From the IMG/VR virus record IMGVR_UViG_3300027996_000032, positions 1 through 62,757 of that record: a DNA stretch of 62,757 nt; one strand, written 5' to 3'. The stretch comes from a virus. Taxonomy: Duplodnaviria; Caudoviricetes. Below, in pieces: positions 28,342 to 56,023 of this stretch. The position numbers and the translations under genes are program-made. Each line of letters opens with the position of its first letter. Position 1 is the first letter of the stretch. A model generated the notes under the pieces. The model was not told the DNA's origin, did no database searches, and was given only the letters and a program-made list of their open reading frames with translations.

Positions 28342-29865
28342 CTAGAGCCGGCCGATGTTCCGGAACGCGACCTGTTGCCACGGGTTCCGGCACTCTGCAG
28401 CGTACGCACTGTAGAGCAGCGGACGATCAAGGGTCGCCAGGACAGGCGCCAGCTGCATCTCACCCATCTGCGGGCCCAGATGGGCCACCGCACAGGTATT
28501 CCTATTCGGCATGTCGTTCTGTGTGAGGAACGACGCGGACTGTGCCACGGAGTCGAAGTAGGCCGTCGGGTTCGGCGCCAGAAGCGCCTTGCTCGCACGG
28601 CTGTGCAGGTTCAGGCCGAACGCCCACCCCGTGTTGGGACGCTGCGCGTTGAGGTCGTAGATCACGACCGCACCGCCGCCGCCGCTGTTGGCCGCCTCCT
28701 GGATGAACCACGCGCTGGTGAGCCCGCCGTCATCCGTGGAAACGCCCCGGTACAGGCGGAAGCTGTCCGCGATGGAGGTGCCGGGGGTCACGGTGATCGC
28801 GACCTCCTGGCCCGCCGCGACGGTGTGGTAGGTCGCCGGAGTGGCGGGCGAGCGTACGCCGAGACCCTCCTTCTCGTTCACGACCTCAGTGAGCACGTAG
28901 TACACGGTGCCAGCGCTGGCGGCGTCCCAGATGGACACACGACCACCACCAGGTGCACCAATCACCACACCCGTGACGGTGGGCAGCGTGGTCGGGGCTC
29001 CCTCCTCCTGGGCCGCGGTGTACTGCGGATGCGAGTACATGGCGCTGAGGGTGTTGTCGGTCACGAACCGGGTCACGCCACCCTGGGTCTGCAGACCGGC
29101 GATGTTCGAGCCCAGGTGGTACGGACGAGCACCGAGCGGGAAGTTCAGGCGGTTGGCACCGTCCATTGACTTCTCAAAATCTCCACGGGTGAGGGGATCC
29201 ATGAACAGACACGTGAAGCGCCCGTAGACCTGGATTCCCCGCGACACGCGGTCGCGCACGGTGTCGGGGGTCAGGGGCAGCCCCAACATGTCGATGACGT
29301 GCGACGCACCCAGGGGGCTCGTCAGCACGGTGCCATCGGTGCCTTCTCGGATCTGCTGCAGCAGACCACGGGCCTTCAGCGACGCATTGCCGAGTCGCGT
29401 GGTCGTGGTGTCCATGAAGTAGACGTTCCGAGCCTTCTTCTGCAGCACGTTGCGACGGAGCGCGACGCGTTCGAAGTTCTGGGCACCCGTCATGCCCTCC
29501 CACTTCTGGGTCTCTTCCAGGCCCGCGAGCAGGAAGGTGGGACCGACCTCGCCCATGAGCCGGATGTTGACCACAAAGCGCTGGCTGGAGAAGTTGGTCT
29601 CGCCAGGCAGGGCCCGTTCCCCGAAGTGGCCGGTGCCCTTGGACACACCGTATCCGGTCATGTTCGTGTACTCATGAGCGACCGACTTGGCCGGAACGCT
29701 CGGGAGATACTTCAGAATCGCCAGCTCCTCTGCGTCGGTTTCCCGCCACAGGAGGTTGTGCGCCTCGATCTCAAGGTCCTCAGGGACCACCGCTGCGATG
29801 TTCCCCGAATGGACCGCCTTTTCGAGGGCGTTCAGCATCAGGCCCTGCTGTTTTGCCGTGAGCAT
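28342..29865 (-). CDS. major capsid protein (Herelleviridae type)
   Basis: ALEKA propeptide-like end, AVVPEDLE...PAKSVAHEY...G...F.E pattern as in A511/K-type MCPs; internal Ig-like insertion ending FRLYRG. Confidence 0.85.
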   Translation of the reverse strand: MLTAKQQGLMLNALEKAVHSGNIAAVVPEDLEIEAHNLLWRETDAEELAILKYLPSVPAKSVAHEYTNMTGYGVSKGTGHFGERALPGETNFSSQRFVVNIRLMGEVGPTFLLAGLEETQKWEGMTGAQNFERVALRRNVLQKKARNVYFMDTTTTRLGNASLKARGLLQQIREGTDGTVLTSPLGASHVIDMLGLPLTPDTVRDRVSRGIQVYGRFTCLFMDPLTRGDFEKSMDGANRLNFPLGARPYHLGSNIAGLQTQGGVTRFVTDNTLSAMYSHPQYTAAQEEGAPTTLPTVTGVVIGAPGGGRVSIWDAASAGTVYYVLTEVVNEKEGLGVRSPATPATYHTVAAGQEVAITVTPGTSIADSFRLYRGVSTDDGGLTSAWFIQEAANSGGGGAVVIYDLNAQRPNTGWAFGLNLHSRASKALLAPNPTAYFDSVAQSASFLTQNDMPNRNTCAVAHLGPQMGEMQLAPVLATLDRPLLYSAYAAECRNPWQQVAFRNIGRL

Positions 29866-29944
29866 TTCGTTCTCCTGGTTGCCCCCGACATGCGTAGGGC
29901 GAGGTTTCGTGTGGGCCTTGACCCGGTAGAGAGAGCAGAGCGGG

Positions 29945-30622
29945 CTAGGCGGCCGCAGCCTGGACGGCCGTCAGGATCTTGGTGTTCTCCGCCTCGTCAT
30001 CCGAGAAGGTGCCGGTCGCCTTCCACCTGGCCAACTGGTTGGAGCCGATCACACCCTCGCCGCTCGCCTTGGCGAGCTGGATCATGGTCAGGCCGTGGAA
30101 GTCACCGCCCACACCCCGACCCTTGCCCACGCTCTTCCGGAGCTTGCGGACGCCCGCCAGGTTGGCCTGCGCGACGCTCGACACACCACCTGTGCTCTCG
30201 CGCAGGAAGGTGTCGATGCCAGCCACACCCTTGGTCAGGGGGCCCAGCACCTTGGCCAGCGCCGCCGACTGGCGGATGGTGAGCGTGGTCAGCTGCGCGA
30301 TCTTCGCGTCCTGAGCCGCGACGGCCTTGCGGAGCTCGGTCACGTCACCACCGACCTGCTCGATGAACTCGGACACGTCGATGTACTCGTCGCCCTTCCC
30401 GAGCGTCTCCAGGTCGGCATAGCCGGGATCTCCCTCCTCGCCTTCCTCCTCGGTGTCCTCGCCTTCGCCCTCCTCGCCCTCTTCCAGGTCTTCGGGGCCG
30501 CCCTTCGCGAGACGTACGAGATCCGAGATGCCGTCAGCCATGCCCTTCAGCATCGACGTGATTGCCGACTCGCCACCAGCGAGTGCGGCGGCGTCTGCCA
30601 GCTCTTCCAGTTCATTGGGCAT
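29945..30622 (-). CDS. capsid scaffolding protein
   Basis: acidic and coiled-coil; between protease and MCP; seven [LM]xK[AGS] sites. Confidence 0.75.
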   Translation of the reverse strand: MPNELEELADAAALAGGESAITSMLKGMADGISDLVRLAKGGPEDLEEGEEGEGEDTEEEGEEGDPGYADLETLGKGDEYIDVSEFIEQVGGDVTELRKAVAAQDAKIAQLTTLTIRQSAALAKVLGPLTKGVAGIDTFLRESTGGVSSVAQANLAGVRKLRKSVGKGRGVGGDFHGLTMIQLAKASGEGVIGSNQLARWKATGTFSDDEAENTKILTAVQAAAA

Positions 30623-31607
30623 GATCTGCCTCCTTGTTCTTCCGGCTCGCCATGAGCTGACGCAGCCACTGTTTCGCGATAGCTTCGGTCACACCATATT
30701 TCTTCATGATGCGACCGACGACTTCCTTCACCCGGGTCGAACTCGTGTTCTGCGGGTCCTGGTCCTGGCCCTCCAGGTCCTCCGGCACGTGCGCGCCTGT
30801 GGCAGCGGCTGTGCCGTACTGGCTCGCACCGGACGCGTCCGCCTTGGCGAGACGAATCCCCTCGCATGCACCAGGTGGGCACGTGCAGCGTCCGCACTCG
30901 GGGACGCCCACCATGCGACGGCGCTGCGACTTGGTGAGGATCTCCAGCGGCGAGGTGCCCTTCTCCATCACGTCCAGCGTCGCGTCCGGGTTCTTCGGGA
31001 GCTCGCAGACCGCAGCCGCCGACACCTGCGCAAAGATGATGCGTTTCCCGCATGGGCTGAGCGCCATCAGACCGTGAGCTGACAGACCGAGCCCCCGAGG
31101 TGTGCCCTTCAGCAGGTGGGCGAGGCTCCAAAAATGGTCAGCTCGTGCGAACTCGTGTTCGGTTGGGCGCCGGGCCGAACCCTTCGCGTTGGTGAGACCA
31201 TCCCAACTCGCCGGGCTGTCGCGGTCGAAGAGTCGACCCGCGGTCCAGAAGCCGACCTTCCCGTGAGCCTTCGCCAACTTCGTGGTGGCATCATGGAACT
31301 CGAGGCCACCAGCCACCGGAAGACCCACAGCCACAGATTCGTTGTGGGTGTCGTTCCAGACTCCGCCCTTCTCGTACTTCGACCAATCGATCAGGCCGAG
31401 CTGTGACGCCACATCGGCACGATGGCCGTCGCGATCGATTGTCGGCACCACCCCACCCTGGGGGCCAATCTTGCCGTACGTCATCAGCCACCCACCCATC
31501 GGGCGGGTGTGGCGACTCCTCGCGCCCACGGACTTCGCGAGCGACCGCAAGGGCAGCACGCTACCGAAGATCGTGAAGTGCTCGATAGTGGCGTCAGGTA
31601 TGACCAT
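30612..31607 (-). CDS. prohead protease
   Basis: DRDG...IDWSKYEKGGVWNDTH...VGLP...RGLGLSAHG (His and Ser motifs like SPO1-type LGFSIEG proteases); start MVIPDAT. Confidence 0.75.
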   Translation of the reverse strand: MVIPDATIEHFTIFGSVLPLRSLAKSVGARSRHTRPMGGWLMTYGKIGPQGGVVPTIDRDGHRADVASQLGLIDWSKYEKGGVWNDTHNESVAVGLPVAGGLEFHDATTKLAKAHGKVGFWTAGRLFDRDSPASWDGLTNAKGSARRPTEHEFARADHFWSLAHLLKGTPRGLGLSAHGLMALSPCGKRIIFAQVSAAAVCELPKNPDATLDVMEKGTSPLEILTKSQRRRMVGVPECGRCTCPPGACEGIRLAKADASGASQYGTAAATGAHVPEDLEGQDQDPQNTSSTRVKEVVGRIMKKYGVTEAIAKQWLRQLMASRKNKEADHAQ

Positions 31608-31698: not shown

Positions 31699-31974
31699 CT
31701 ACCGATCCGGCGGTGATCCGTCAACGCGACGGCGGCGAACCACTGCGCGGCGCCGCTTCCGTCCCCCCTCCTCGTCGCTAGCCTCCTCGGCCTCCTGGAC
31801 GGCCAGCCAAGGGACCCGAACAGCGCTTCGACACCTCGGGCACCGGGCCACGAACTGCCCGCCGACGAGACGCAAGATCCGAGCCCGTAGCGTCCACTCC
31901 CCACCTCGATGGGCCCACAGGTCCTCGCCGCACTGGCAGCGGGCCCTCAGCTCGGATGGCTCAGTCGTCCCCAT
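31699..31974 (-). CDS. small Zn-ribbon protein with basic tail
   Basis: RCQCG...RCPRC; ends KRRRAVVRRRRV. Confidence 0.55.
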   Translation of the reverse strand: MGTTEPSELRARCQCGEDLWAHRGGEWTLRARILRLVGGQFVARCPRCRSAVRVPWLAVQEAEEASDEEGGRKRRRAVVRRRRVDGSPPDR

Positions 31975-32236
31975 TGCTGCTCGCCACGAAGCGGTCCAGG
32001 CGCCCACGCTCATCGTGAAGGACTCGCAAGCGGCGAGCAGCGAAGGGGCCGCCGCCATGATCCACAGCTACATGCTGCTCTACCGTGTGGATGGTGTCCG
32101 GCATGCTGTCGAGCTGCCTCGTGGCACGCTTCGCCAGCTGAGCACGCGCCGCCTTCACCTCGCGGCGCTGGTGCTCGATCTTCGCGGCCGCAGCCACCAG
32201 CTTGTCCCGGCTCAAAGCACGAGCTCGTAGCCGCAC
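31961..32236 (-). CDS. small basic coiled-coil hypothetical protein
   Basis: ORF overlaps its neighbours in the operon; start uncertain. Confidence 0.4.
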   Translation of the reverse strand: MRLRARALSRDKLVAAAAKIEHQRREVKAARAQLAKRATRQLDSMPDTIHTVEQHVAVDHGGGPFAARRLRVLHDERGRLDRFVASSNGDD

Positions 32237-32607: not shown

Positions 32608-32618
32608 CAGGTCCTAGC

Positions 32619-35600: not shown

Positions 35601-38333
35601 GAAGTGCTCCGCGAACTCGTCGGATGGCCGCACGTTCCCCTCGGCGTCGCGGATCGGGATGGCCTTCCGCATGGATGCCAGAAACGGCTTGATCTTGTCG
35701 CCTACCTGGTTCGTCACCGAGGGGGACATCAGATCGGCCTGGATGTCCTCGGGGCGCTCGCCGTCCGCCACCCGTGCCCCGACGTGGGAGCGCAGGGCCG
35801 CGTCCATGTCATCACCGGACAGATCGAGCGGCGCGAAGTGCCGAGGCGCATCGGGCAGGTCCCGGTTGAACGTGGTGCTTGCCCTCCGCTTGATCCCCTC
35901 TGGTAGCCAGCCCTTCTCGTCGCGGTCGCCACGCTTGATCGCCTCCACCTCTTTCCGGCGTTCCAGCACGTCCGCCGACTCGCGGTGCACGAGCTTCTCC
36001 CAAGAAGCTTGGGGCACCGTCACCTGCTTGCCTTCCAGGTCCACCGAGTAGTCGGAAGACGTGAGGCCCGCGGCGTGGAGCCATTGCAGCTGAGTGTTCA
36101 GGTCCGACCCCTCGCGAAGGGGCAGCGTCATCTTGTCGGGCAGGGGGGTGCGGTACGCCTGCGCCAGCGTCGCGGTAGCCTCCAGGCTGCCAAGGGCCGC
36201 CCCCACGGCCGTCTGCGCGTCGTCAAGGTCGGCATCGTAGGCGCCAAGGTGCGCCGCGGCGTCCTCGATGCTCCCCACATCTTCGACGGACCGCTGCAGG
36301 CCGGGCACCGCCGACTCCACTTGCTGCAGCGCCTTCACCGATCGGGTCTTCACCTGCTCGACGTGGTGGCTCTCCAGGGCGCCGAGCACCGTGGCGTCGT
36401 CGTGCCCGTCGGATGACATGGCCCAGCGGGTCAGGAGCGCCGCATTCCCGACACCCACAGCATCCACCGTGAGCCTGTCCAGATACCTCTGCTTCGAGAT
36501 CCCGAGCGAGACATCGGCGAGCGCCGAGTAGTGCCCATCGGCCAGGGCGGTCGCGTGAGCCCCACGCTTCTCGTCTGCGACCCCCAGGAGCTGCCGCGTG
36601 AGCTGCGTCCTCACCGCATCCTCGATGTCTTGGCTGACCTTCTCGGGTGGTGGCCCCACCTTCAACTCGACCGCGCGGCGTGAGGCATCATAGTCGCCCG
36701 ATTCCGCGGCCTTCACCATGGCCTTGAACTCCTTCTGTGCGGCCCGTAGGGCGTCTTTCGACTCCATCAGGTCGCGGAACTCGTGCAGCTCCGCCTCGCG
36801 CAGGGGGACCCGAGACGAGTCGGTCAGGCCCAATTTCTTGGCGTACTCCGAGGCGTCCTTGGTGATCCCCGCCATCAGTTCGCCGTAGGCTAGAGCCGCC
36901 ATCGCTTTGTTGCCCTCGCCTTCCGCCTCCAACCCGGCGAACTTGTCGGCCTGCGCTCGCTTCACCTCTGCGCGCCTCACCTGGCGCCCCGCCTCCCGCT
37001 TCAGGGCATCGGCGTGGTCCTCCGGGTCTCCTTCGAGACCGAGCCGCTCCATGGCTTCCGCCACCGCGGCCTTCCTGCCCTCGTCGAGATCCCCACCACC
37101 GGCGGCGTCAGACAGCGCCGCGGCGGTGTCCATGGCCACCAGGGATTGGCGCTCGGCCTCGTGTGACGCGAGATCGATAGACTCGGGGCGGTCACGGCCC
37201 CCAGCAGCCTCCAAGTCCTTCGCCAGCTGGTCATGGTCGACCAGCTCCAACTGCTTGGCGGCGTGCTCTGTTGCTGCGGCACCCACCTCGCTGGCTGCCG
37301 ATGGTGTCCGGCTCCGACGCGCGGCACGCTCCCCCGCTCGCTCGGTCTCCTCCTGGGCCTGCAGCTCGAGCTCGGCACGCGCCATGTGCACGACATCGCC
37401 GTGAACCGGGTCTTCACCCTCGACGGAATCACGCACGATCTCCGCGTCCACGGCTTCCATGGCCTTCCCAGCCACGATCTTCTCGTGGTGCTCGCGCAGC
37501 CGCTTGTTGGCCTGTGACAGCTGCCGGCGGTGGTGGCGAGACCGGATGATGTTGCGAGCCCCATCGCTCGGCACCTTCGCGAGGTCGGATTCCGGCAGGT
37601 CGTCCTCGACGCCCCCGAGCTTCTCGCGCACCGTCTCAATGAACTTGCGCTCGGCGTCGACCTTCGCGTCTTTCGCCTCCTTGACGGTCTTGTCTTCCTG
37701 CTCGTTCTCCTCGTCGGATTGCCCCTCGCGGCGCTCTTTGGTCGTGGCGTCTTTCTTCTTCTTCCGCTCCGCCGACTTCTTCGCCCACTTCTTCCGGTTC
37801 TCTGGCGTGTCCTTGGCGACCCCTTTGAGGCGGGCGTGGGTCATCTTGCCGCCAGCCCCACCGATGATCCGGTGCGTGCCGTCCGGGTTCGGGCGGATCA
37901 GGACAGGAACCCCCTTCTCGCCGTCGCCGTTCGGGTGCACCGTGATCCAGCGCTCACCCTCCTTCAGAGCCCGGCCCTTCCGCAGCAGGCGCCCACCAGC
38001 CTGGACGAGCCGCACCACAGGCAGCCGCAGCTTGGACACCTTCGCGGATTCCGAGACGCGATACCGGCCGTGCTGCACCTTGTGCATCTTGCCGTCGGCA
38101 TCCACGACCTGGATGCCGTGCTCGCCGCGCGTGTGCTCGACACCGACGCGATCGTCGGTGTCGCCATCACCGCGCCAGTGCACTCGGGGCGAGTCGTGCC
38201 ATGCGAGCGAGGTGTGCCGCTGCTCCCACGGCACCCGCACCCGGTACGCCTGCCCGGAACGTGTGCATGTGAGACTCACGATCGCGTGGTCTGAACTCCG
38301 CTGACAACGCTCGAACCGCATGGCGCCTCCCAC
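32619..38333 (-). CDS. 1904-aa polyvalent protein with C-terminal SF2/SNF2-like helicase
   Basis: GGTGFGKS (Walker A), NDEAH (Walker B), GSATP (III), IVFTDS (IV), ATRAMEAGVN (V), QRSGRAFRQGQ (VI); N-terminal WITVHPNG...PVLI...IIGGAGGK motif. Confidence 0.85.
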   Translation of the reverse strand: MGGAMRFERCQRSSDHAIVSLTCTRSGQAYRVRVPWEQRHTSLAWHDSPRVHWRGDGDTDDRVGVEHTRGEHGIQVVDADGKMHKVQHGRYRVSESAKVSKLRLPVVRLVQAGGRLLRKGRALKEGERWITVHPNGDGEKGVPVLIRPNPDGTHRIIGGAGGKMTHARLKGVAKDTPENRKKWAKKSAERKKKKDATTKERREGQSDEENEQEDKTVKEAKDAKVDAERKFIETVREKLGGVEDDLPESDLAKVPSDGARNIIRSRHHRRQLSQANKRLREHHEKIVAGKAMEAVDAEIVRDSVEGEDPVHGDVVHMARAELELQAQEETERAGERAARRSRTPSAASEVGAAATEHAAKQLELVDHDQLAKDLEAAGGRDRPESIDLASHEAERQSLVAMDTAAALSDAAGGGDLDEGRKAAVAEAMERLGLEGDPEDHADALKREAGRQVRRAEVKRAQADKFAGLEAEGEGNKAMAALAYGELMAGITKDASEYAKKLGLTDSSRVPLREAELHEFRDLMESKDALRAAQKEFKAMVKAAESGDYDASRRAVELKVGPPPEKVSQDIEDAVRTQLTRQLLGVADEKRGAHATALADGHYSALADVSLGISKQRYLDRLTVDAVGVGNAALLTRWAMSSDGHDDATVLGALESHHVEQVKTRSVKALQQVESAVPGLQRSVEDVGSIEDAAAHLGAYDADLDDAQTAVGAALGSLEATATLAQAYRTPLPDKMTLPLREGSDLNTQLQWLHAAGLTSSDYSVDLEGKQVTVPQASWEKLVHRESADVLERRKEVEAIKRGDRDEKGWLPEGIKRRASTTFNRDLPDAPRHFAPLDLSGDDMDAALRSHVGARVADGERPEDIQADLMSPSVTNQVGDKIKPFLASMRKAIPIRDAEGNVRPSDEFAEHFDSLVGEHLGATGKGETDAAHRQSIDTDSPETHEALFRTLAERPLLKVGFTPPSQLKPEDRQALIDHFYERQGIADERSYKGIFNEELEKLGKEPKQFGGTMSFFGPQTESKEYGDWKRDAMALAGRYPSEGRELHRRLRGDAPESTRHPDLTDEQVKAIDAAHEKAPWLSADKVVRAARTEMGSAEARRRGEDPHAIDALGSPKAHEYAPRILPQHVDSYLAPKMWEAKNARFEQRAAGADTPWGLYVSMHGGLENAQRALQDELRGDFAARFAHHHGQTTGKTLRRTVSDVHNRENHVFATANPKEHAAYREARRTRMQEVQERHADTKQYSGMGGEGALLAKETKSREEDRARATAQGGMFGGGGMFGGPPKPSGEVKMEPRSAEEIATPSLGQRVSLGRRAEGQIESLMGHVGQQFDPRQGGVDLVKGLNMDGHRADQQRAAKMLDANGGRMQLTGGTGFGKSLTTIGMFTGQHGKGATKHGLFLVPTSVQRQFGNEMLRYTEPGKHSWKTSEGKGHADRMGILKGDTHMRVFTHAAFRDTALRMMADHANVSHDEMRKKLRSSTVQERAGWYRDAREAHGVPAHFTYNDEAHMTVQREGAKPSMLSLVMTAASHPSNTTHYVRGSATPVKNDPSEAWSTAADLAPDRYGGRRDFMSSFGGSGHNPDALRRELSHLTFTSRIDPEGVERHDSANPKIEDGKKVASGGPLELHPEQKKLVDRVDALYERVRKGKSVGKVDVEAVKELSPKGFDTTPEADHEELAKGKAKAVGTMREMAMRRAINQAPEEINHKLKTMADVIAHDVKNGEYLDRGGSKQKGKPTIVFTDSLAELRMIHDSLSKRGVRSATYHGGMNVKARDKVMRGFQPEGGGDPSHDVIVATRAMEAGVNAQRAKAVHHYDLPMTQKAHAQRSGRAFRQGQHGDVDIHNWHTDTDFDRRALRRLRRKKTLAEAHETPVSLEEHGIAGHYAAAQRERTGHRELPPEMAYAAK

Positions 38334-45653: not shown

Positions 45654-47737
45654 TGGAGGCCACGCGTGCGACGGATTCGCTCCATGACGCTCATCAGAGA
45701 GCGTTCGCTCTTCGAGCGCTCCCCGTAGGGCGGCACCACCTCGGGACCATCACCCTTCGCGAGCTTGCGGTACTCCTCGCTTCGGGAGTCCTCGCCGTCT
45801 TTGCGCGTGAACTCCTCGACAATGATCGGATCTATGTACTTGTCAAGAGCGGTCGTCACCGTCAGCTCCCATTCTTTGTTGGGTGGATGCTCGGCCTTCG
45901 GCAGGACCTTGTGCGCAGTCCTCCCGAGTTCCGCCTGATACCGCTTCCGGTCCGCGGTCCCATGGAAGCCCGCCACGTCGGCACCGAAGAGGGCGCCGCC
46001 GTGCTTCTCAACCAGCATTCTATCAGCCTTCTCGTCCGTTTTCACGAAGTGAGAGCGGCTCTTGCCGACCTTGTGCCCGAGCGCTTCCGCAGCCACTGTC
46101 GCGGCCGCTGTGACCCGATCCCCAACCTTCTGCGGGGCACCAGCCTTCGCGAGAGCATCCATCTCGGCAACGAAGATCCGGTTCGCGTGGAAGGTCCGGA
46201 AGTCCTTGATCGTCCCCCCCGTGTGCGAACGCACGTACGTGTTGAGACGGCTGGCGCTCCCCTCGAAGACGCGGGCATCGGGTGGGGGCCCGAGCAGCGG
46301 GGCGATGACCTTGGCGAGCGCAGCATCCTCCACGCTCTTCACGTGTGGCACTGACGCCTTCCCAACGTACGTCAGGATGACCCGATCACCATCGACGCTC
46401 ACCTGTCCTCGCGTGAGGGTCGTCACACCCCTTACATCGAGCTTCGCAGACTTCTCGTTGCCGGCACGGATCAGGGTGCTGTCCACGAGCACAGCCATCG
46501 CCGCAAGATGCGAGCCCCTGGCGAGGTCGGCGATGAACGTCTGGCGCGCACTGTCCAGCGACAGCCCAAACGCGTACATCTTCGCGAACTTCTTCGCGGC
46601 CTGGGCCTTGAGAAAGTCCTCGTGGTAGCCGTAGGTTTTGCGGCTGGTGGTGGGCGACACCCAGCGCAGGCTCCAGTTGTCGGAGGCTCCGCCGCGGGTC
46701 GCGGCGACGCCGACCGGTGGGTACTTGTCCAGGCCGGGCATGTCCGCCCGTAGCTTCGCGGCTGCAGCTTTGGCGTCGGCAATAGGTTGATTCGGCGCGA
46801 CCTTCCGTGTGGCTTGGTGTTGGGGCACCGACACCACGCCCGTCTTCGTGCGGCGAAGGTGGCGCTTCACCGTGACCTTCTGCTCGCCGAACAGCCCGGC
46901 CTGCGCCTTCCGCAGCTCCTTGGGGAGTGCAGCCCACACCCGGTCCGGCTTGTCGAGCCGCTTCGAGCGCGACGACCGCTTGCGCAGGTACGCGGCGAGC
47001 TCGGCGACAGGCCATGCTGTGAGGCCACCATCGAAGCCTGGTTTCGTGTACTGCTTCAGATACGCTCGTCTCGCCGCCGCCGCGGTCCGGTAGCCCAGCA
47101 TGACCTTGTCTTCGTCGAAGACCTGGGTGCCCGGAACCTTCTGGTGCACGACGTAGGCGGTAGGTGCTGATCCATCCTCCCCGACGTAGACATCCACTGG
47201 ATCACCATCGACACCGAGAGTCCGACAGAACTCGCCGTAGTGCGCATGCATCTTGATGATCCATTTCTTCCCGTCTGGATCAAACCCCGTGCGCGTCGAA
47301 CCCTTGCGGTTCTCGACCTTGATCTCGAGCCCCTGGAAGTCGATCACCCCCACGAAGGGGTACTCGCGGCGGTTCGGTTTCGGTGGTGGGCCCACCACCA
47401 CCGCCGATTCAGCGAGCGCCCGCAGCCGCTTTGCCTCCGCGGTGGGTCCGCTGCCCTTCGTCAGCTTGGTGCGACGCAGGCGACGCGCGACGTAGCGCTG
47501 CGAAGGCCGCACGCCCTTCTCCATTTTGCGGAACAGCCCCTCATACGGGACGCCGCCGGTCTTGAATGTGCGCACCAGTTCTGCCGTCTGCGCCCTGGCT
47601 TTCCGGAGACTCGTCACGAGCATGTGGTAGGGCAGCGGGAGCCCTGTACCCTCGATGGTGAGGACACCGACCCGACGCGGCCCACGCCGCCCCCATGCGA
47701 AGGTGAGACCACCGGCTGTCCATGTCGTCGCGACCAT
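45650..47737 (-). CDS. fusion of an inorganic-pyrophosphatase-like domain and DNA topoisomerase IB
   Basis: IKVENRKGSTRTG...HYG...GVDGDPVDVYVG...FDEDKVMLGY (PPase-like); LIRAGNE, YVGK, KDFRTFHAN, LGH, KYIDP (TopIB R-K-R-H-Y pentad). Confidence 0.85.
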   Translation of the reverse strand: MVATTWTAGGLTFAWGRRGPRRVGVLTIEGTGLPLPYHMLVTSLRKARAQTAELVRTFKTGGVPYEGLFRKMEKGVRPSQRYVARRLRRTKLTKGSGPTAEAKRLRALAESAVVVGPPPKPNRREYPFVGVIDFQGLEIKVENRKGSTRTGFDPDGKKWIIKMHAHYGEFCRTLGVDGDPVDVYVGEDGSAPTAYVVHQKVPGTQVFDEDKVMLGYRTAAAARRAYLKQYTKPGFDGGLTAWPVAELAAYLRKRSSRSKRLDKPDRVWAALPKELRKAQAGLFGEQKVTVKRHLRRTKTGVVSVPQHQATRKVAPNQPIADAKAAAAKLRADMPGLDKYPPVGVAATRGGASDNWSLRWVSPTTSRKTYGYHEDFLKAQAAKKFAKMYAFGLSLDSARQTFIADLARGSHLAAMAVLVDSTLIRAGNEKSAKLDVRGVTTLTRGQVSVDGDRVILTYVGKASVPHVKSVEDAALAKVIAPLLGPPPDARVFEGSASRLNTYVRSHTGGTIKDFRTFHANRIFVAEMDALAKAGAPQKVGDRVTAAATVAAEALGHKVGKSRSHFVKTDEKADRMLVEKHGGALFGADVAGFHGTADRKRYQAELGRTAHKVLPKAEHPPNKEWELTVTTALDKYIDPIIVEEFTRKDGEDSRSEEYRKLAKGDGPEVVPPYGERSKSERSLMSVMERIRRTRGLQ

Positions 47738-47900: not shown

Positions 47901-47975
47901 ACCCACGTAGTTCAGTTGGCAGAACACCCGGTGTAATGAACCGGGAGGTCGAGGGTTCGATCCCCTCCGCGGGTA
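47901..47975 (+). tRNA. tRNA-like gene with expanded anticodon arm (9-nt loop TGTAATGAA; identity undetermined)
   Basis: acceptor ACCCACG/CGCGGGT (one A-C mismatch), D arm GTTC/GAAC, AC stem CCCGG/CCGGG, T arm GAGGG-TTCGATC-CCCTC; no encoded CCA. Confidence 0.7.
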
Positions 47976-47978
47976 TTG

Positions 47979-48051
47979 GGGCGAGTAGCTCAGCGGTAGA
48001 GCGTCGGGCCTTCGGGTCCGGAGGTGGCTGGGTCAGCACCAGCCTCGCCCA
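47979..48051 (+). ncRNA. anticodon-less tRNA-like RNA (anticodon loop replaced by a cUUCGg tetraloop)
   Basis: acceptor GGGCGAG/CTCGCCC, D arm GCTC-AGCGGTA-GAGC, TCGGGCC-TTCG-GGTCCGG, T arm GCTGG-GTCAGCA-CCAGC. Confidence 0.7.
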
Positions 48052-48072
48052 TACCCTTTCCAGAGGTGAGCG

Positions 48073-48369
48073 ATGAAGCTCTATCTGATCGTGAAGACCG
48101 CCCTGGGGGCAGGTCTTCGGTGTGCGCAGGCCATCCACGCCTTCCGCGCCTTCGTTGGCGAGTACCCGCACATTGAGACGTTCTGGCACCTCGAGCACAA
48201 CAACATCGTGGTGCTGCGCCACGAGGATCCCGAGTCGCTCGCCGCGTTGCTCCGGATGCATGGCCTCCGCTTATCCCTCTTCCGGGAACCCGACCTCGAC
48301 AACGAAGTCACGGCGCTGTGCGTCGAGCCCGCCGGCGCCCGCTACCTGTCGACACTTCCCCTCGCGTGA
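48073..48369 (+). CDS. Pth2-like peptidyl-tRNA hydrolase
   Basis: KLYLIV...L.AG..CAQAIHA...IVVL...FREPDLDNEVTALCVEP...LS.LPL; GAGGTG RBS. Confidence 0.8.
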   Translation: MKLYLIVKTALGAGLRCAQAIHAFRAFVGEYPHIETFWHLEHNNIVVLRHEDPESLAALLRMHGLRLSLFREPDLDNEVTALCVEPAGARYLSTLPLA

Positions 48370-48397
48370 CGACCACAAGGCTATCTTCCCCATGGTG

Positions 48398-48472
48398 GGG
48401 CCTGTAGCTCAGTGGTAGAGCACTCGTCTGATAAGTGAAAGGTCGGCCGTTCGAACCGGCCCAGGCCCACCA
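48398..48472 (+). tRNA. tRNA-Ile(GAT)
   Basis: GGGCCTG/CAGGCCC-ACCA, loop CTGATAA, T loop TTCGAAC; weak anticodon stem (one C-A, two G-U). Confidence 0.85.
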
Positions 48473-49106: not shown

Positions 49107-49967
49107 CTAGGGCTGGTGGTGGTCATCGAACGGGTCGGAGCGCTTCACAGCATCCAGGTGCCCACCAAAGTCGTCGTGTGACTCCATGCTCTTGGGGACG
49201 ACCCCATACCTGCCGTGAGCCTTTCGCGTGGTGGCGTCCACATCGTCGAGCTCGACGCCAGACTTGAAGGCCGCGCGCTCGGCGTGTCTCTCCGCCTGCT
49301 GCTTCGTCTTCGGGCGCCCCAGCTCGGCGACCTCTTTGGACCATCGCCGCGTGGCGTGGTGCCCCCTGACACCATCCATGCCGGCGCCGAGGTGGTCCTT
49401 CAGGTATTCCTCCACGTGGTCGGCCTCGACGGCCCGTGGTGAGCCGTCGTGCCCCGCCCCTTCGAAGACCTGCCCCACCTCGCGACCTTCGAGCGCCGCC
49501 CGAAGCCATGCCGCAAGGCGGGCGTCCTCGACTTCGTGGTGGGGCTGCGACGCCGCACGCACCGACACCTTGGTGCCGTCCACCTTGATCTCGTTGGCCG
49601 TGATGTGGTGGATGTGGCGGCCCGCATACTGGGTGAGCAGCGCACATGCAGCGCGCGCAGCTATGGGGCTCGTCGCGCCGAGGCGTAGATCTCGGTACGC
49701 ATGGGCGCGGAACTTCGGGATCTCCGCGTGGTGCCTCCGGAGCTCCGCGAACCCCGCACCCGCGTCGCTGTGTTCCTTCGCCTTCGCTCGCCCCTCGTCG
49801 TGAGAGGGCCCACCGCTTCCGGAGTGCTCGACGTAGTGCCCGTGATGGACGCGATGGGTCGCGCCCTCGTCGTCCTGGACTGTGACACCGTGGCGGCCTG
49901 GCTTGTGGACCAGCCGCCCGGTGTGTGGTTTCCCCGTCTGCGGGTGTCGGAACTGGACCCGCTTCAC
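49107..49967 (-). CDS. SH3/KOW-like N-terminus plus degenerate topoisomerase IB-like catalytic domain
   Basis: IPKFRAHAYRDL...ACALL...IKVDGTKVSV...EVEDARLAAWL...QVFE...VEEYLK...VRGHHAT matches the TopIB core by eye; no RxGNE or YIDP. Confidence 0.55.
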   Translation of the reverse strand: MKRVQFRHPQTGKPHTGRLVHKPGRHGVTVQDDEGATHRVHHGHYVEHSGSGGPSHDEGRAKAKEHSDAGAGFAELRRHHAEIPKFRAHAYRDLRLGATSPIAARAACALLTQYAGRHIHHITANEIKVDGTKVSVRAASQPHHEVEDARLAAWLRAALEGREVGQVFEGAGHDGSPRAVEADHVEEYLKDHLGAGMDGVRGHHATRRWSKEVAELGRPKTKQQAERHAERAAFKSGVELDDVDATTRKAHGRYGVVPKSMESHDDFGGHLDAVKRSDPFDDHHQP

Positions 49968-51545: not shown

Positions 51546-52700
51546 CTACCGCAGCCGGCCACCGTCCGCCTTCACTCTTTCCGCGAGACTTCGAGCGCCA
51601 CGCTTGATCCGCTCGATGTACAGGATCGCCGCCCCTTCTGTGCAATTCGGGTGAACGGGCCCAATGACCGGCCCCCACTGTGCCGCGGGGAGACGGAAGT
51701 TTGCGCCCGCGCGCTCCCTCGCTTCCAGGGTGGACACCCTGTAGAGGTGCGGATCCGTGTTCGGGCCCCAAATCCGCTTGCAATGCTTGCATGCGGTACG
51801 AGCCACCAGCTTGTACACCCTTGGGTCCTTCCCGAGACCCAACTGGATGGCTTGCTCCTTCAGCCGGACCCAGGCGCCCTGAGCGTGGGCGTTCACCAAC
51901 TCGGTGCGCGCAACCCGGGTCATGTTGTTGACCAGGGCTGTGCCCTTCGCGGCCTCCTTGAGTTCCCGCCCCAGGGCTGCCACAGAGAGGCGACCCCGGT
52001 ATCCGGCCTCGATGGTGCTCCGCATGGCGGCGAGTTCGTCACCAGACAGCGCGCGGTCCGCCTCGGCCACCACCCGCCACGCCTCACCCGTCCACTCGTG
52101 AGCGGGGCGCCGCATGTAGATCGCGGCGCGGCGTCGGATGTACCGCACCGCCGCCTCGTCCTTTGGCGTCCACGGTCCCGCCACCCCATCCTTCACCAGT
52201 CGCGCGAGCGTCTTCGTCGACTTCGGCCGCTCTGGTGGCGACGCGAGCGTCTCAAGCTGGCGCCCGATGCGGTAGGAGACCTCAATCCATGAGGTGTCGG
52301 ACAACTCCGGGGAGATCAGCCCCGCGGTTTCCAGCCTCCTACGCTGGTGCTCGGCACCCGCGGGACGAGCGAACCGGATCAGCATGGCAAGGGAATGATC
52401 CTCAAGGAGCGCCATCAGGACCCGCTCGCGCGCCTCCGTCAGCGGGAACAACTGCCCCCGGCCGTGCAGGTCGGTCACCTGGGCAATGAGCTTGTCTCCC
52501 CAGCGCGCCCAGTCCTTCCGAGCCAGGCGGATCAGCTGGAACAGCTCCGGCAGCCGGGGATCGTCACCCTCGCCGTCGTCGTGGACGTGAGCCTTGAGCA
52601 TCGAGGTCAGCCCAAGGTGGGCCGCCAGGCCGTGCAGGAGCGCCGGGTAGTCGGACCGCTCCACACCATCCAGGCGCAGGCCCACGTCGAGAGAGCTCAT
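51546..52700 (-). CDS. MuF / SPP1 gp7-like minor head protein
   Basis: RVARTEL..AHAQG, ACKHC, GPVHPNC motifs. Confidence 0.8.
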   Translation of the reverse strand: MSSLDVGLRLDGVERSDYPALLHGLAAHLGLTSMLKAHVHDDGEGDDPRLPELFQLIRLARKDWARWGDKLIAQVTDLHGRGQLFPLTEARERVLMALLEDHSLAMLIRFARPAGAEHQRRRLETAGLISPELSDTSWIEVSYRIGRQLETLASPPERPKSTKTLARLVKDGVAGPWTPKDEAAVRYIRRRAAIYMRRPAHEWTGEAWRVVAEADRALSGDELAAMRSTIEAGYRGRLSVAALGRELKEAAKGTALVNNMTRVARTELVNAHAQGAWVRLKEQAIQLGLGKDPRVYKLVARTACKHCKRIWGPNTDPHLYRVSTLEARERAGANFRLPAAQWGPVIGPVHPNCTEGAAILYIERIKRGARSLAERVKADGGRLR

Positions 52701-53107
52701 GCCTCACCGTCCACCAGTGCCGCGAGCTCGGGGCCCACATCGAGGTCGTGAAGACTGCCAGCGTGGGTACTCACCAGCTGCGCCAGGAGGTCCCCCGGCG
52801 TCATGTCTTCGCTCGCCGCCACCTCCAGGAACGCCTCTGGTGAGCAGCTCCGACACGCGGGGGGGGCATCGATCATCGGTTCCATGCGGGTTCTGCATCG
52901 CATGCAGAGGGCGACGGGCACGGGCCCCTCCACTCGGCCGAGCCGATTTAGCCAGGTGTGATCCATAGGTTGGTAGCCGTCAACTCGTCGACGGATCGCG
53001 CGGCGAGCCCCCGTCGTCGTGTGCTCCTGGTAGGCCCACACCGAGGTGCTGTGGTGTGTTTTCCATCCGAACCCGAGGTGCCGCAGCGCTCTTTGTAGCC
53101 ACATCAT
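52697..53107 (-). CDS. hypothetical protein with Cys4 motif
   Basis: CMRC...CRSC; coupled to neighbours. Confidence 0.45.
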   Translation of the reverse strand: MMWLQRALRHLGFGWKTHHSTSVWAYQEHTTTGARRAIRRRVDGYQPMDHTWLNRLGRVEGPVPVALCMRCRTRMEPMIDAPPACRSCSPEAFLEVAASEDMTPGDLLAQLVSTHAGSLHDLDVGPELAALVDGEA

Positions 53108-53979
53108 GCGTCCCACCAAAGAATGAAACCAAGGATGTCCGTCAGATCTCGCTCCCTCACGGCCACCATGTTCGACACGTTGGCGTCCACGCTCGACACC
53201 TTGCCCGGCTTCGCCGAGTACAGCGTCACCGCGACATGCCCCGCCCAGTGTCCGGCAGGTACTTCGCCTGGATCATCGGAACCCGACAGCCCGCGACGCA
53301 TGATCAACAGCGAGCCAGGCGGCACCACCTGGTCTGTGGTGGCGATCACCTCGTCGACGGAGAGGAACACGCCGCGCTCCAGCGCCCACTCATACGCCTG
53401 TTTCGCGCCACCGAGCCACACGCCGAGCGGTGTGGCTGCCCACACGCCCCGGTCCGTGGCGTCAACGACACGATGACCACCGCAGCCGCGGCGAACCCAG
53501 TGAGAGGCCGCCATGCCGCACCAAGGGAGGCCACCACCGGCCCCGATCTGCCAGTACTCGCGGTAACCGTCGACGAGGTGGGCGATCTCGGGTCCCAGGT
53601 TGCTGTCCCCGGCCTCCCGAGCCCCCAGGTCGTCCAGGCCGGCGAATGCCGTGGCAGCCGCGCAGTCCGGCAGCTCGACGCCATGCGAGATCGCCCAGTG
53701 CTCGAGGCCGTCATCCACGAGCGCCATCCACTGAGAGCGCCCCTCCTCCACGACCGCCGCAGGAGGCACCGCCCGCCCCTCGACCAGGAGGGCGTCCCAC
53801 GTCCGTGGGCCGACGATGCCGTCAGCTCCCAGTCCAGCCTGCATCTGGAACGTGACCACCGCGCGACGGGTGCCGCCACCGAAGACACCGTCGACGCCGA
53901 CGGGTAGGCCATGCACCGCGAGGCGCTCCTGAGCGTACGTCACCGCACTTCCGCTGCTGCCTTGTCTGATCGTCTTCAA
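53104..53979 (-). CDS. endolysin: peptidoglycan-binding domain plus CHAP amidase
   Basis: IRQGSSGSAV...DGVFG..T..AV..FQ...GL.ADGIVGP.TW; PWC, GHVA, DAN catalytic motifs. Confidence 0.85.
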   Translation of the reverse strand: MKTIRQGSSGSAVTYAQERLAVHGLPVGVDGVFGGGTRRAVVTFQMQAGLGADGIVGPRTWDALLVEGRAVPPAAVVEEGRSQWMALVDDGLEHWAISHGVELPDCAAATAFAGLDDLGAREAGDSNLGPEIAHLVDGYREYWQIGAGGGLPWCGMAASHWVRRGCGGHRVVDATDRGVWAATPLGVWLGGAKQAYEWALERGVFLSVDEVIATTDQVVPPGSLLIMRRGLSGSDDPGEVPAGHWAGHVAVTLYSAKPGKVSSVDANVSNMVAVRERDLTDILGFILWWDA

Positions 53980-53980
53980 T

Positions 53981-56023
53981 TCACCCCTCCTCGTGGACGC
54001 GCACCACGGTCACCCGAGCCGCCTTCTGCATCGGTTGGCCTGGCTGCCCAGGCATGCCCGGTGGGGGTCCACCAGGAGCCCCAGGCGGGCCACCAGGCTG
54101 GGGCTGCGGGGGTTGGCCGGGTGGTTGCTCACCGAAGGGACCGGGAGGCGCACCTGGACCACCGAAGCCGTCGCCGTCCTCCTCCTGGCCGTCATCCATC
54201 GCCTGTTGCTGCAGCATGCCGATTGCGGTCTGGTTCAGAATGTTGTTGTACGGGTTTGCTCGGTACTTCTTGAGCATCTCCAGCTTCTTCTCGGTCTTCT
54301 TCTTCTTCTTGTCCTTCTTCTTGTCCTCAGGCGACGCCTCGGGCTCCTGCCCCTGCCCCTGGGGATCCTCCTGCCCCTCCTGGTCGTCGGGCTCCTCCTG
54401 GTCGTCGTCGGCGTTCTGGGGGAACCCCTCCCCCTCGCCCTTCTCCATCGCCTGGGGTGGCCCTTCCTCGTCGTCGTCGTCGTCGTCGCTCATCATGTCG
54501 CGACGCTCCAGTTCCTCAAGGGCCCGAAGGTCGGCGGGCTCGATCCAGAACCCCAAGGGGGTCAATCCCTCCAGCAGGCGCACCTCGTTGGGTGTGCGGC
54601 GCGACCTGGTCTCGATCTCCGCGACCTCCGCATCCTCGCGGCCGTTCACGTCGCCGTACTCCCACACCAGGCGCAGATCTGGATGGATCCGCGCCAGCAT
54701 GGGATCGAAGATCGAGTCGGTCAGGTGGCCCACATCAGCCTGTAGGCCCTCCGCCTTGGCCAGCGAGATCTCCATCTCCCGGTTCGGAGCGTTCAGCGTG
54801 GGACCGGCGCCACCGCTCCAGGGCTTCGCGTTGATGACGCTGGGATCCATCCTGTAGTGCGAGCACATGAGCGACACGATCAGGGAAAAGTAACCCTCGA
54901 ACCCCATCTCGGTGACGGGGGGCTTGAGGTCGATCTTCGTGATCGTGCCGTCCTGTGGGAGCGGCATGATCGGCGGCTGGTGAGCGCGTCGGACACCCTG
55001 CGACGCCTGGCGCAGCAGGTCCACGAAGGCGTCGAGATCCTGATCGTGGACGTTGCCGGTGATCCCGAGGATGAAATCGGACATCATGCCGCGCGTGAAG
55101 AGTGAGCTGTTGTACGTCCAGGTGTTGAGCCCGGCAAGCAGCGTTTCCGCGCTGTATTCCACATGGCTCGGCTGGTACGCGGCGTGTCGCACGTCCGTGG
55201 TCGTGTAGCGCTGCCCCATGATCAGGCGGCCGGGACGGAAGACCCCCTCCATCACGCCCTCACGCACCAGGACATACTCGGCGGTGCGGATGTCGTGACC
55301 CACATCAGCCGCGATCATCTCCAGGCACTCCTCGTCGGTGATGCCCGCATAGCCTTCGTCGAACCCAGGATGATCCGCGATCCATCGTTCGAGGTAGAAG
55401 AGAGTGGGCCACACCAGCGCCCCGTCCACGGGGCGCCAGCCCACGACGTAGTGCGGATCGTAGTCGCTATACAGCAGCTCCACACACGGCCGGTTGATGG
55501 TGAGAAACTCCTCTTCGAGCTGCACAAGGGCCGCTCGGAACGTCGTGCAATACCGTGCGGACGGCTTCGCGATCTGGCGAGCGCCGGTCGCGATCAGGCG
55601 CTCGAACCCCTCCGGCGGCGTGGCGTCCGCCTCCTCGTGGTCCTTGTGCACCACCCGCCAGCCCACCGAGCCTTTCTTGCCGCGGTAGGGACGACACAGC
55701 CTCGCGACCTGGTGCTGCCGCGCGGCGTGGATGGCGCTCGTGATCACGCTCTCGCGACGGATGCGGCGGAGCACGTCCAGGGGGAGCTCGCTCTGGCCAG
55801 TCGACTTGTCGATCCCCATGCCGCCGCCGTCTCGGTGCACGTACCGGGCGGTCGAGGGCATGCGCGGCTTCGTGGCCTCCCGAATGGAGCGATCCCGCAT
55901 GGTCCGGATCACGTCAGGCGGCACGTAGACGCCACCCTCGACGCTCTGGCGCAACCCCGCACCGAGCAACGTTTGCACGGGGCTCTGCTTCAGCATGGGC
56001 ACCTGGCCCGCTCTACCTGCCAT
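53981..56023 (-). CDS. portal protein with low-complexity C-terminal extension
   Basis: LDVLRR, W.PVDG, EMGFEGY...MCSHYRMDPS.IN, SLAKAEGL, TPNEVRLLEGL portal motifs. Confidence 0.85.
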   Translation of the reverse strand: MAGRAGQVPMLKQSPVQTLLGAGLRQSVEGGVYVPPDVIRTMRDRSIREATKPRMPSTARYVHRDGGGMGIDKSTGQSELPLDVLRRIRRESVITSAIHAARQHQVARLCRPYRGKKGSVGWRVVHKDHEEADATPPEGFERLIATGARQIAKPSARYCTTFRAALVQLEEEFLTINRPCVELLYSDYDPHYVVGWRPVDGALVWPTLFYLERWIADHPGFDEGYAGITDEECLEMIAADVGHDIRTAEYVLVREGVMEGVFRPGRLIMGQRYTTTDVRHAAYQPSHVEYSAETLLAGLNTWTYNSSLFTRGMMSDFILGITGNVHDQDLDAFVDLLRQASQGVRRAHQPPIMPLPQDGTITKIDLKPPVTEMGFEGYFSLIVSLMCSHYRMDPSVINAKPWSGGAGPTLNAPNREMEISLAKAEGLQADVGHLTDSIFDPMLARIHPDLRLVWEYGDVNGREDAEVAEIETRSRRTPNEVRLLEGLTPLGFWIEPADLRALEELERRDMMSDDDDDDEEGPPQAMEKGEGEGFPQNADDDQEEPDDQEGQEDPQGQGQEPEASPEDKKKDKKKKKTEKKLEMLKKYRANPYNNILNQTAIGMLQQQAMDDGQEEDGDGFGGPGAPPGPFGEQPPGQPPQPQPGGPPGAPGGPPPGMPGQPGQPMQKAARVTVVRVHEEG

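Follow-up and report, generated by a model that had tools for sequence, protein, structure and literature searches.

How a tailed phage trims its head proteins during assembly, and whether the same cuts reach the large enzymes encoded among its head genes, is the question raised by the virus record IMGVR_UViG_3300027996_000032 of IMG/VR, a linear sequence of 62,757 bases with 65% G+C and a completeness estimate of 69%, which was analysed as a whole and will be referred to as the window. The tetrapeptide [LM]-x-K-[AGS], referred to as the motif or site, recurs in its head proteins and in several enzymes of the same gene cluster, which we call cargo. An earlier reading of the nucleotide sequence without database searches (the sequence-only reading) had proposed a code common to both groups, and re-translation of the coordinates recovered every motif copy it had listed. 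On balance, [L/M]-x-K followed by A, G or S is probably the recognition site of the phage's own assemblin-fold prohead protease in head and cargo proteins alike. What the sequence shows directly is the enrichment of the motif, its positional conservation, the gene order and a protease fold in which His and Ser are invariant. The proposed common code is supported by the top rank of the motif among dipeptides, by its kept positions, by cultured relatives and by the adjacent gene for an assemblin-fold Ser/His protease.

Nearly all genes of the window are on the minus strand. In order of decreasing coordinate they encode the terminase (the large subunit was assigned by a GpA_ATPase match), the portal, a peptidoglycan-binding protein, a MuF-like protein, small open reading frames (ORFs) with a tRNA island, the cargo enzymes (InPase-TopIB, methyltransferase (MTase), LPD1 and SNF2 helicase), the protease, the scaffold, the major capsid protein (MCP) and presumed tail proteins. 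The head genes thus follow the order portal, MuF-like, cargo, protease, scaffold and MCP on one strand, which places the protease between the portal and the scaffold and MCP. The presumed tail genes were named by position and because the ORFs following the MCP gene resemble, at their N-termini, annotated sheath and tail proteins of relatives.

Each of the 46 window proteins was compared with 5000 shuffles. The scaffold candidate carries seven motif copies (MLKG24, LAKG38, LGKG74, LRKA97, LTKG129, LRKS161 and LAKA183) against 0.51 expected, the protease ORF six against 0.57 and the InPase-TopIB protein seven against 1.30 (p 0.0002 in each case), the listed copies of the last being LRKA44, MEKG72, LTKG92, LRKA275 and LAKG659. 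Three copies were found in the portal against 0.60 expected (p 0.019), namely MEKG526, MQKA665 and LAKA421, the last of which was absent from the sequence-only reading. The internal portal copies LAKA421 and MEKG526 are not kept in relatives and are probably not meaningful. By number alone the motif was not significant against shuffles in the MCP (LEKA14; 1 vs 0.41), the MuF-like protein (MLKA34; 1 vs 0.56), the MTase protein (MLKS11 and LSKA656; 2 vs 1.18), the SNF2 protein (5 vs 3.20, with LRKG117 among them) and the LPD1 protein (5 vs 2.16, including LLKA12 and LAKA1019). Summed by class, 18 copies were observed in head proteins against 2.64 expected, 19 against 7.84 in cargo, nine against 5.11 in tail proteins, none against 1.29 in the class labelled 'mid' and one against 2.25 in all others.

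The sequence-only reading had proposed comparing head and cargo proteins with tail proteins and shuffled sequences, and here the two groups parted: head proteins were clearly enriched, whereas the cargo total lay little above the tail background of about 1.7-fold. Its caveat that chance copies occur in tail proteins held, and a similar background was seen again in the tail-side ORFs of relatives (16 vs 9.5 expected; n = 42 ORFs). Cargo ORFs of relatives contained 83 sites against 38.7 expected (n = 32 ORFs). Since tail proteins themselves run at about 1.7-fold, cargo density, at about 2.1- to 2.4-fold, ranks just over background, and overall site density was largely rejected as a cargo marker. 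The cargo signal is the placement of the sites, not their number.

The excess in scaffold and protease is of another kind. The tripeptide [LM]xK alone exceeded shuffles 5.3-fold in the scaffold and 4.3-fold in the protease, and seven of its eight occurrences in the window scaffold are followed by A, G or S. This cannot be attributed to helix, composition or richness in Lys, because the excess was only 1.17-fold in the SNF2 protein, which has 121 lysines, and 1.5-fold in the 647-residue ORF at 18082-20025, the presumed tape measure protein.

To find relatives, a single MCP sequence was searched against viral contigs and returned none; a profile of MCP homologs retrieved 38 loci, seven of them with 40-59% MCP identity, and the region from head to portal was compared for the records of five relatives. 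A third-codon-position G+C (GC3) filter had dropped some scaffold and protease ORFs of relatives from the per-contig counts, and these ORFs were added later. The enrichment recurred: seven copies vs 0.41 expected in the scaffold of L002, five vs 0.50 in the protease of L003, six vs 0.46 (protease) and six vs 0.54 (scaffold) in the near-identical contigs L004 and L005, five vs 0.47 and five vs 0.22 in L006, one vs 0.19 in the protease of L007, and six vs 0.94 (scaffold) and two vs 0.21 (protease) in L008. ORFs after the MCP gene mostly contained none or one. When all 400 pairs of the form a-x-b were ranked, L-x-K came first in the seven scaffolds (42 vs 10.6, z 10.5) and again in the seven proteases (33 vs 8.8, z 8.9), and M-x-K was also high in the scaffolds (14 vs 3.9); in 18 tail proteins the highest-ranking pair was P-x-P with z 3.6. 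The z-values overstate the evidence because homologous positions are not independent, although the ranking stands. The residue after [LM]xK was G, A or S in 43 of 56 cases in scaffolds and in 30 of 36 in proteases.

Three cultured phages with GenBank records, Mecenats66, Touem01 and Dolphis, show the head-gene order of the window at an MCP identity of 24-29% and differ from one another in GC content. Their scaffold candidates contain six, seven and nine copies (0.95, 0.50 and 0.50 expected, in that order) and their proteases three, four and six (0.52, 0.52 and 0.62 expected). M-x-K ranked first in all three, followed by L-x-K in Touem01 and Dolphis. The MCP N-termini carry MMKS (residues 29-32), LQKS (26-29) and LIKA (30-33), respectively. 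In Touem01 and in Dolphis, a phage of Pseudomonas putida, MQKA and 11 further residues close the portal; for Mecenats66, only part of the portal lay within the compared stretch. The text of the Mecenats66 paper, as far as it was accessible, makes no mention of mass spectrometry, cleavage, prohead protease, major capsid or virion protein.

Within the MCP the site marks a border. Fifty-seven homologs with 35-63% identity were found, and 36 aligned rows were read at the N-terminus, one of which lacks the N-terminus and was left out. The motif stands at the same place in 33 of 35, one shifted by one column; of the remaining two, one has LLKA four residues upstream and the other LEQA. Upstream of the site the sequences vary in length and content, and downstream they are strongly conserved. 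Likewise, an alignment of seven divergent scaffolds kept six motif islands, two of them in all seven. The scaffold candidate, which gave no Pfam or PHROG match, owes its name to its position, its composition and a weak match to scaffolds of relatives, two of which share 25% and 38% BLAST identity with it. In five of five portals the C-terminus consists of a Pro/Gly-rich linker, [LM]-x-K-[AG] and a tail of 12-37 residues, an arrangement expected 0.19 times. Orthologs of the MuF-like protein, itself free of Pfam or PHROG matches, come after the portal in relatives (37-39% identical), and its N-terminal site is found at the aligned position in four of five.

The candidate enzyme for these cuts is encoded next to the scaffold. 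Its ORF comprises 430 codons, the first 100 or so of which have a second-codon-position G+C (GC2) of 0.73-0.77, resembling non-coding sequence, and relatives align only from about residue 105; the ORF is therefore regarded as over-extended, with ATG 31607 as the likely start. Only 63 relatives were found among 1.84 billion representatives. H88 and S176 (numbered from ATG 31607) are invariant in 41 aligned homologs and are presumably catalytic. At the N-terminal site, at least 90% of these homologs have the Lys, a strict site lies at most 32 residues before the core in 26 of 41, and most others have a looser hydrophobic-x-K-[AG]. An AlphaFold2 model reached a mean predicted local distance difference test (pLDDT) score of 79.7, exceeding 90 in core residues 33-215; confidence was low in the N-terminal 32 residues and in 231-284, and a confident helical pair forms the C-terminal end. 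Of its six sites, four fall in flexible or peripheral parts, including those near the N-terminus and in the C-terminal linker. Against the predicted viral structures of BFVD the model gave 60 matches at E ≤ 1e-3, and those with names, the best at E 1.9e-8, are prohead or head-maturation proteases besides MCP fusions. A structure comparison with the PDB placed three herpesvirus assemblins on top at E 0.02-0.3; a sequence search of the PDB gave a chance match only (E 0.42). The models point to an assemblin-type fold and to the same fold and role as HK97-type prohead proteases. By sequence, however, the protein is not demonstrably a member of the Peptidase_S78 family, and because the S78 model was not matched we assign it by fold and role and not by membership.

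One further link between protease and capsid emerged. The N-arm of the MCP (nucleotides (nt) 29770-29865, residues 1-32) and the C-terminal linker of the protease have the motif [AI]-V-[VI]-P-E-D-L-E in common, placed 9-21 residues after an L-x-K-A site. Among about 150 proteins scanned it occurs only in MCPs (seven of seven, in a looser form) and in four of five long-form proteases, and the protease tail may mimic the MCP N-arm to become loaded.

The cargo proteins contain the signature domains of polyvalent proteins (LPD1 and InPase) in addition to Topoisom_I and Helicase_C, lie beside the portal, MuF-like and other head genes, and have counterparts of 1,400-2,100 residues in relatives. They are polyvalent proteins that in the window are partly split into separate genes. 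The N-terminal leaders of the LPD1 and MTase proteins are homologous (E 4.6e-15), and the MTase leader is repeated between the two domains of the InPase-TopIB protein. This leader contains a tag made up of Q-L-x-L-F-G and a small beta-meander. In relatives the tag is found at N-termini and repeatedly inside proteins of 1,400-1,700 residues. Seventeen tags were collected, 14 by a hidden Markov model (HMM) at an independent E-value (i-E) of at most 1e-10, one by a weaker match, one as the split LPD1 tag and one by pattern only, and the strict motif stands directly before 16 of them, the other having LAKT. As the tags are homologous and most come from a single contig, the 16 of 17 reflect conservation by descent and not 17 independent events. 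Invariant in the retained part are Q, V, V and H, with F, K, H and R nearly so. A model of the tag shows a helix of low confidence over residues 3-19, covering the site and Q..LF, and then a confident four-strand meander (23-50). When the 110-residue MTase leader was searched against longer proteins, nothing but the query came back. The peptide in front of the site is short, 14 residues before the Lys in the LPD1 protein, 13 in the MTase protein and 7-14 in relatives. The retained part starts with QMSLF (45597-45611), QLSMF (43510-43524) and QAGLF (46889-46903) in the window and with QLGLF in relatives; we take this Q-L-x-L-F start to resemble the bacterial sliding-clamp-binding motif, a likeness by sequence alone.

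Sites also occupy joints that have no tag. A site follows directly on the LPD1 domain in three of three orthologs, whether 13-22 or 750 residues come next, on the MTase domain in two of two and on the InPase domain in four of four. Four of five helicase homologs have a strict site 8-11 residues ahead of the WITVHPNG module, among them the 1371-residue helicase (ORF61) that Mecenats66 encodes between its minor head protein and its prohead protease (MIKA at residue 5); the fifth has VSKG. The leader before this helicase site measures four residues in Mecenats66, 116 in the window and several hundred in two relatives. Ten of 37 cargo ORFs have a site in the N-terminal 45 residues (1.9 expected), compared with one of 60 tail ORFs (1.9 expected), and ten of 37 have one in the C-terminal 45 residues (1.7 expected). 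InPase is fused to the MTase in one relative, and in two others the gene before InPase ends in a homolog of the window InPase leader (47534-47725, residues 5-72). Gene borders drift against modules between relatives, and the sites remain at the module borders. As a side observation, a short module G..V.D..G..H.V.HG.Y is common to the SNF2 leader (38061-38135, residues 67-91) and a TopIB-like protein of 286 residues (ORF 49107-49967; module at 49833-49907, residues 21-45) with E 0.002; in relatives it forms the C-terminal end of proteins of 1,049 and 1,700 residues.

The sequence-only reading had further proposed that an Arg-rich R-x-VV-R peptide outside the sites is an address label for loading into the prohead. 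All five strands it listed are present, and a basic hydrophobic strand near cargo and portal sites was indeed found, whereas relatives do not conserve the VV form at the corresponding termini. With overlapping matches counted, R.{0,2}VV.{0,2}R occurred six times in cargo (1.24 expected), twice in head proteins (0.41), three times each in 'mid' (0.76) and other proteins (1.01) and never in tail proteins (1.71), so that the strict excess is modest and non-specific; relatives gave 11 matches, one of them near a portal C-terminus. A looser strand, Arg plus two or three hydrophobic residues, is seen in six N-terminal tags (RYVV, RGLV, RFLV, RFLL, RLYIL and RILV), which read M-x(0-4)-R plus hydrophobic residues and then the site, and in several C-terminal tails of portals and cargo proteins. 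The peptide before the site can be as short as four residues (MIRF-LLKS in a relative), and in relatives the strand also occurs bracketed by two sites (LSKG-ARLVFR-LTKG and MEKA-VRFIFR-LTKA). Within nine residues of the cargo sites of relatives it was found after 19% and before 24% (n = 83) against a background of 6%, beside 4-5% of scaffold and protease sites (n = 55), and in window cargo after 5% and before 21% of 19 sites. As the loose pattern was fixed after examples had been seen, this enrichment is suggestive only. The part that would stay on the enzyme after the presumed cut (Q-L-x-L-F-G and the beta-meander) shows stronger conservation than the peptide that would be lost. The five listed strands could be explained simply if the window genes arose by the splitting of longer polyvalent proteins, at the joints or close to them, with the strand left at the new termini. 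A strand of this type also ends a small Cys-rich, zinc-ribbon-like protein encoded between the helicase and protease genes (31699..32058, minus strand; C-terminal RRAVVRRRR), and its homologs in two relatives end in RRFVVR and RRRLVVR.

Several of our results weigh against a protease code in head and cargo. Cargo density, in the window as in relatives, hardly exceeds that of the tails, and the names of the scaffold and MuF-like proteins have no family behind them. The window protease matched neither Pfam nor PHROG, Peptidase_S78 was touched by only two of its 41 relatives (best E 0.014), and the fold search of the PDB gave no match at E ≤ 1e-3. Two of its six sites fall inside the core that was modelled with high confidence, where cutting is improbable. 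Twelve of the 17 tags come from one contig, and the tags are homologous copies. Sites in the C-terminal 45 residues are found in tail ORFs too (6 of 60 vs 1.8 expected), and a close pairing of sites was rejected (22 pairs vs 20.6 expected). No proteomic or biochemical datum for this clade was found in the literature, and cleavage, packaging and injection are what we infer.

How else might the motif be explained? Chance or composition, a motif chosen after the event in a GC-rich proteome rich in Ala, Gly and Leu, is extremely improbable: the motif was picked after reading the sequence and tail proteins do reach 1.7-fold, yet its first place among 400 pairs in an unbiased scan and its replication in relatives and three cultured phages effectively refute this explanation. 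That it is an uncut, repeated binding or structural element, for instance for scaffold-to-capsid contacts or as a helix cap, we regard as very unlikely. Scaffolds are repetitive binding proteins, and two copies in the protease lie within the folded core; the tetrapeptide nevertheless stands at the variable/conserved border of the MCP, at the end of the Pro/Gly linker of the portal and in the linkers flanking the protease core, places typical of processing, and other helical Lys-rich proteins are without it. A doubtful alternative confines cutting to scaffold, MCP, protease and portal. The cargo L-x-K-[AGS] would then belong, as a conserved element, to a mobile junction or leader cassette that works after expression or injection, for example by binding DNA or the sliding clamp through Q-L-x-L-F-G and the beta-meander, and the enzymes need not be packaged. 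Since the copies of the cassette are homologous as a unit (E 4.6e-15 and 2e-10, and HMM matches), its L-x-K may indeed be kept for its own fold; the model places L-x-K and Q..LF in one helix, at low confidence, cargo enrichment is overall near the tail background, and the presumed likeness of Q-L-x-L-F to the clamp-binding motif would fit. However, sites also stand at tagless joints (after LPD1, MTase and InPase, and before WITVHPNG), cargo preferences at P3 and P1' match those of scaffold sites, and the cargo genes lie in the head module on the same strand, as with the packaged proteins of phage P1.

The Arg-rich strand has been read as a capsid targeting sequence in the style of T4, trimmed by the protease after loading. 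The six N-terminal tags of the form M-x(0-4)-R plus hydrophobic residues, the Arg-hydrophobic tails after terminal sites in portals and several cargo proteins, and the strand between two sites in relatives and beside cargo sites more often than in the background all agree with this, as does the length of 10-20 residues given for T4 targeting peptides in the accessible text of PMC5694885. Even so, it appears unlikely: the pattern is post hoc, the strict R..VV..R is not kept at homologous termini and occurs also in non-head ORFs, the peptide shrinks to MIRF, conservation is stronger in what would be retained than in what would be removed, and the propeptides of MCP and protease have no such strand. 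Instead of loading, the strand might serve in docking of the protease or might be a mere part of the mobile junction cassette.

Returning to the preferred reading, a prohead protease using Ser and His would cut after the Lys of the motif. In the prohead, about six conserved sites of the scaffold would be cleaved by it, and the MCP would lose its first 16 residues. The protease would also trim about 25 N-terminal residues from itself, detach its own C-terminal helical domain and clip about 12 residues from the C-terminus of the portal and about 36 from the MuF-like protein. Cleavage of scaffold, MCP, protease and portal at the motif we regard as likely, with some confidence. The large enzyme proteins encoded between portal and protease would finally be cut at their module joints, for which the arguments seem evenly balanced. 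Such a joint would consist of a domain, L-x-K-[AG], a short Arg-hydrophobic strand, L-x-K-[AGS] and then Q-L-x-L-F-G with its small beta-meander, which would stay on the next module after the cut. Packaging and injection of the enzymes are suggested by gene position and by the precedent of T4, P1 and giant phages. It is a rather improbable speculation that the joint is a portable 'load, cut, deliver' cassette, in which the strand holds the modules in the prohead, cuts at L-x-K on either side of it divide polyvalent proteins into single enzymes irrespective of gene borders, and the exposed Q-L-x-L-F with the beta-meander leads each enzyme to the host sliding clamp or DNA once injected. The positions of the features are collected in Table 1.

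Table 1. Head and cargo features of the window with their predicted sites (positions in nt of the window unless residues (aa) are given)
Feature	Position	Strand	Remarks
Portal protein, 680 aa	53981..56023	-	phrog_2662 portal, E 5.2e-12
Portal C-terminal MQKA + 12-aa tail	53984-54031	-	ARVTVVRVHEEG
MuF-like minor head protein candidate, 384 aa	51546..52700	-	
MuF-like site MLKA, aa 34-37	52590-52601	-	
InPase-TopIB protein, 695 aa	45650..47737	-	InPase E 5.1e-38, Topoisom_I E 3.5e-18
InPase-TopIB leader LRKA44/MEKG72/LTKG92	47453-47608	-	
InPase-TopIB internal tag LRKA275-QAGLFG	46766-46942	-	homologous to MTase N-terminus, E 2e-10
InPase-TopIB C-terminal LAKG659 + tail	45653-45763	-	
Methyltransferase protein, 676 aa	43623..45653	-	weak Pfam methyltransferase matches, all under curated cut-offs
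MTase N-terminal tag MLKS-QMSLFG + beta-meander	45468-45653	-	tag HMM i-E 2.2e-22
MTase C-terminal LSKA + tail	43626-43688	-	
LPD1-domain protein, 1041 aa	40444..43569	-	LPD1 E 8.3e-22
LPD1 N-terminal tag MRRYVVAARLQ-LLKA-QLSMFG...	43456-43569	-	
LPD1 C-terminal LAKA + Arg-rich tail	40447-40515	-	
SNF2-type helicase protein, 1904 aa	32619..38333	-	Helicase_C E 8.6e-18
SNF2 LRKG, aa 117-120	37974-37985	-	between leader and WITVHPNG module
Prohead protease	30612..31607	-	ORF extends to 31904; likely start ATG 31607
Protease N-terminal site LAKS	31530-31541	-	
Protease C-terminal linker site LAKA...VPEDLE	30771-30851	-	
Scaffolding protein candidate, 225 aa	29945..30622	-	seven sites, acidic stretch
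Major capsid protein, 507 aa	28342..29865	-	phrog_752 major head protein, E 8.9e-17
MCP site LEKA, aa 14-17	29815-29826	-	presumed maturation cut after K16
MCP VPEDLE	aa 27-32		

Among the neighbouring genes, a protein with an N-terminal PG_binding_1 domain (53104..53979, minus strand; E 4.3e-15) is encoded between the portal and MuF-like genes; it resembles the binding domains of endolysins and contains no motif copy. Within the cargo cluster, on the opposite strand, ARAGORN reported three tRNA-like genes (47901..48472, plus strand), two of them tRNA-Ile and one with an undetermined anticodon. A second, free-standing methyltransferase (2382..3125, plus strand) is a paralog of the catalytic part of the head-module MTase (E 1.9e-14).

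Compared with known systems, the window protease shares with the HK97-type proteases of Peptidase_S78 the assemblin fold, Ser and His, and a gene between the portal and capsid genes, and differs in missing the S78 model and in having a separate scaffold gene instead of a delta domain on the MCP. In HK97-type proteases the C-terminal part directs the protease into the prohead, which parallels the putative detachable C-terminal domain of the window protease. The motif of T4 has Glu at P1 (L/I-x-E), whereas that of the window has Lys followed by a small residue; window sites are moreover found at C-termini and between the domains of multi-enzyme proteins, and the presumed cargo consists of large enzymes and not of small internal proteins.

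In other respects T4 matches the reading proposed here: according to the accessible text of PMC5694885, the source for T4 and the giant phages in what follows, gp21 cuts at one short motif the scaffold core, the MCP propeptide, itself and the N-terminal peptides of the internal proteins IPI-III and Alt, which are injected afterwards. The same text confirms what the sequence-only reading had stated, that T4 internal proteins carry a capsid targeting sequence of 10-20 residues which loads them and is then removed; the short N-terminal peptides of the LPD1 and MTase proteins, ending at a predicted protease site, resemble such sequences. The companion statement of the sequence-only reading, that A511/K-type MCPs lose a short propeptide ending in KS, was not found in the literature searched. 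More generally, PMC5694885 describes for T4, phiKZ and SPN3US proteases that act at a motif on scaffold, MCP, portal and ejection proteins and strip off capsid targeting peptides. For SPN3US and phiKZ this processing extends to the protease itself besides MCP, portal and ejection proteins, often with several sites. The giant phages phiKZ, 201phi2-1 and SPN3US (gp175/gp245, A/S/G-x-E) agree with what is predicted for the window in that a single motif serves for the processing of portal, MCP, protease and many ejection proteins, propeptides have multiple sites and the protease cleaves its own C-terminus; they differ in the motif itself, in propeptides of more than 100 residues and in that their cuts were measured by mass spectrometry, whereas those of the window are predicted from sequence.

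For large cargo the nearest precedents are phage P1 and the polyvalent proteins. DarB of P1 is a large DNA-modifying and helicase protein, encoded beside portal and prohead-protease genes and delivered with the DNA, and its N-terminal 30 residues suffice to load a reporter into the capsid (accessible text of PMC9024508). The Dar N-termini have no obvious common consensus according to the same text, whereas the window has a common tag and a presumed cut-site motif; the likeness to DarB is one of description. Phage polyvalent proteins with LPD1, InPase, MTase, helicase and TopIB modules in long chains near portal and MuF genes were predicted to be packaged, and their processing was ascribed to peptidase domains of their own (Iyer et al. 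2017, PMC5512222); the window version differs in being partly split into separate genes. The accessible text of that paper mentions neither a prohead-protease site nor a Q-L-x-L-F-G junction tag, and the word 'clamp' occurs zero times.

A literature search for a Lys-specific prohead protease found none, and a search that did not extend to subscription journals and supplements returned no description of a Lys code for this clade or of a link between polyvalent joints and a prohead protease. As far as this search shows, motif-coded head maturation and protease-removed targeting peptides, textbook matter for T4 and the giant phages, are undescribed for this clade of myoviruses of about 86-94 kb. 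If the code is true, it gives exact predictions of mature termini for Mecenats66, Touem01 and Dolphis. It would explain how giant polyvalent proteins that contain no peptidase domain could be divided into separate enzymes, and why gene borders drift while the modules persist. The code would also offer a candidate handle to load foreign proteins into capsids, as the signals of T4 and P1 do.

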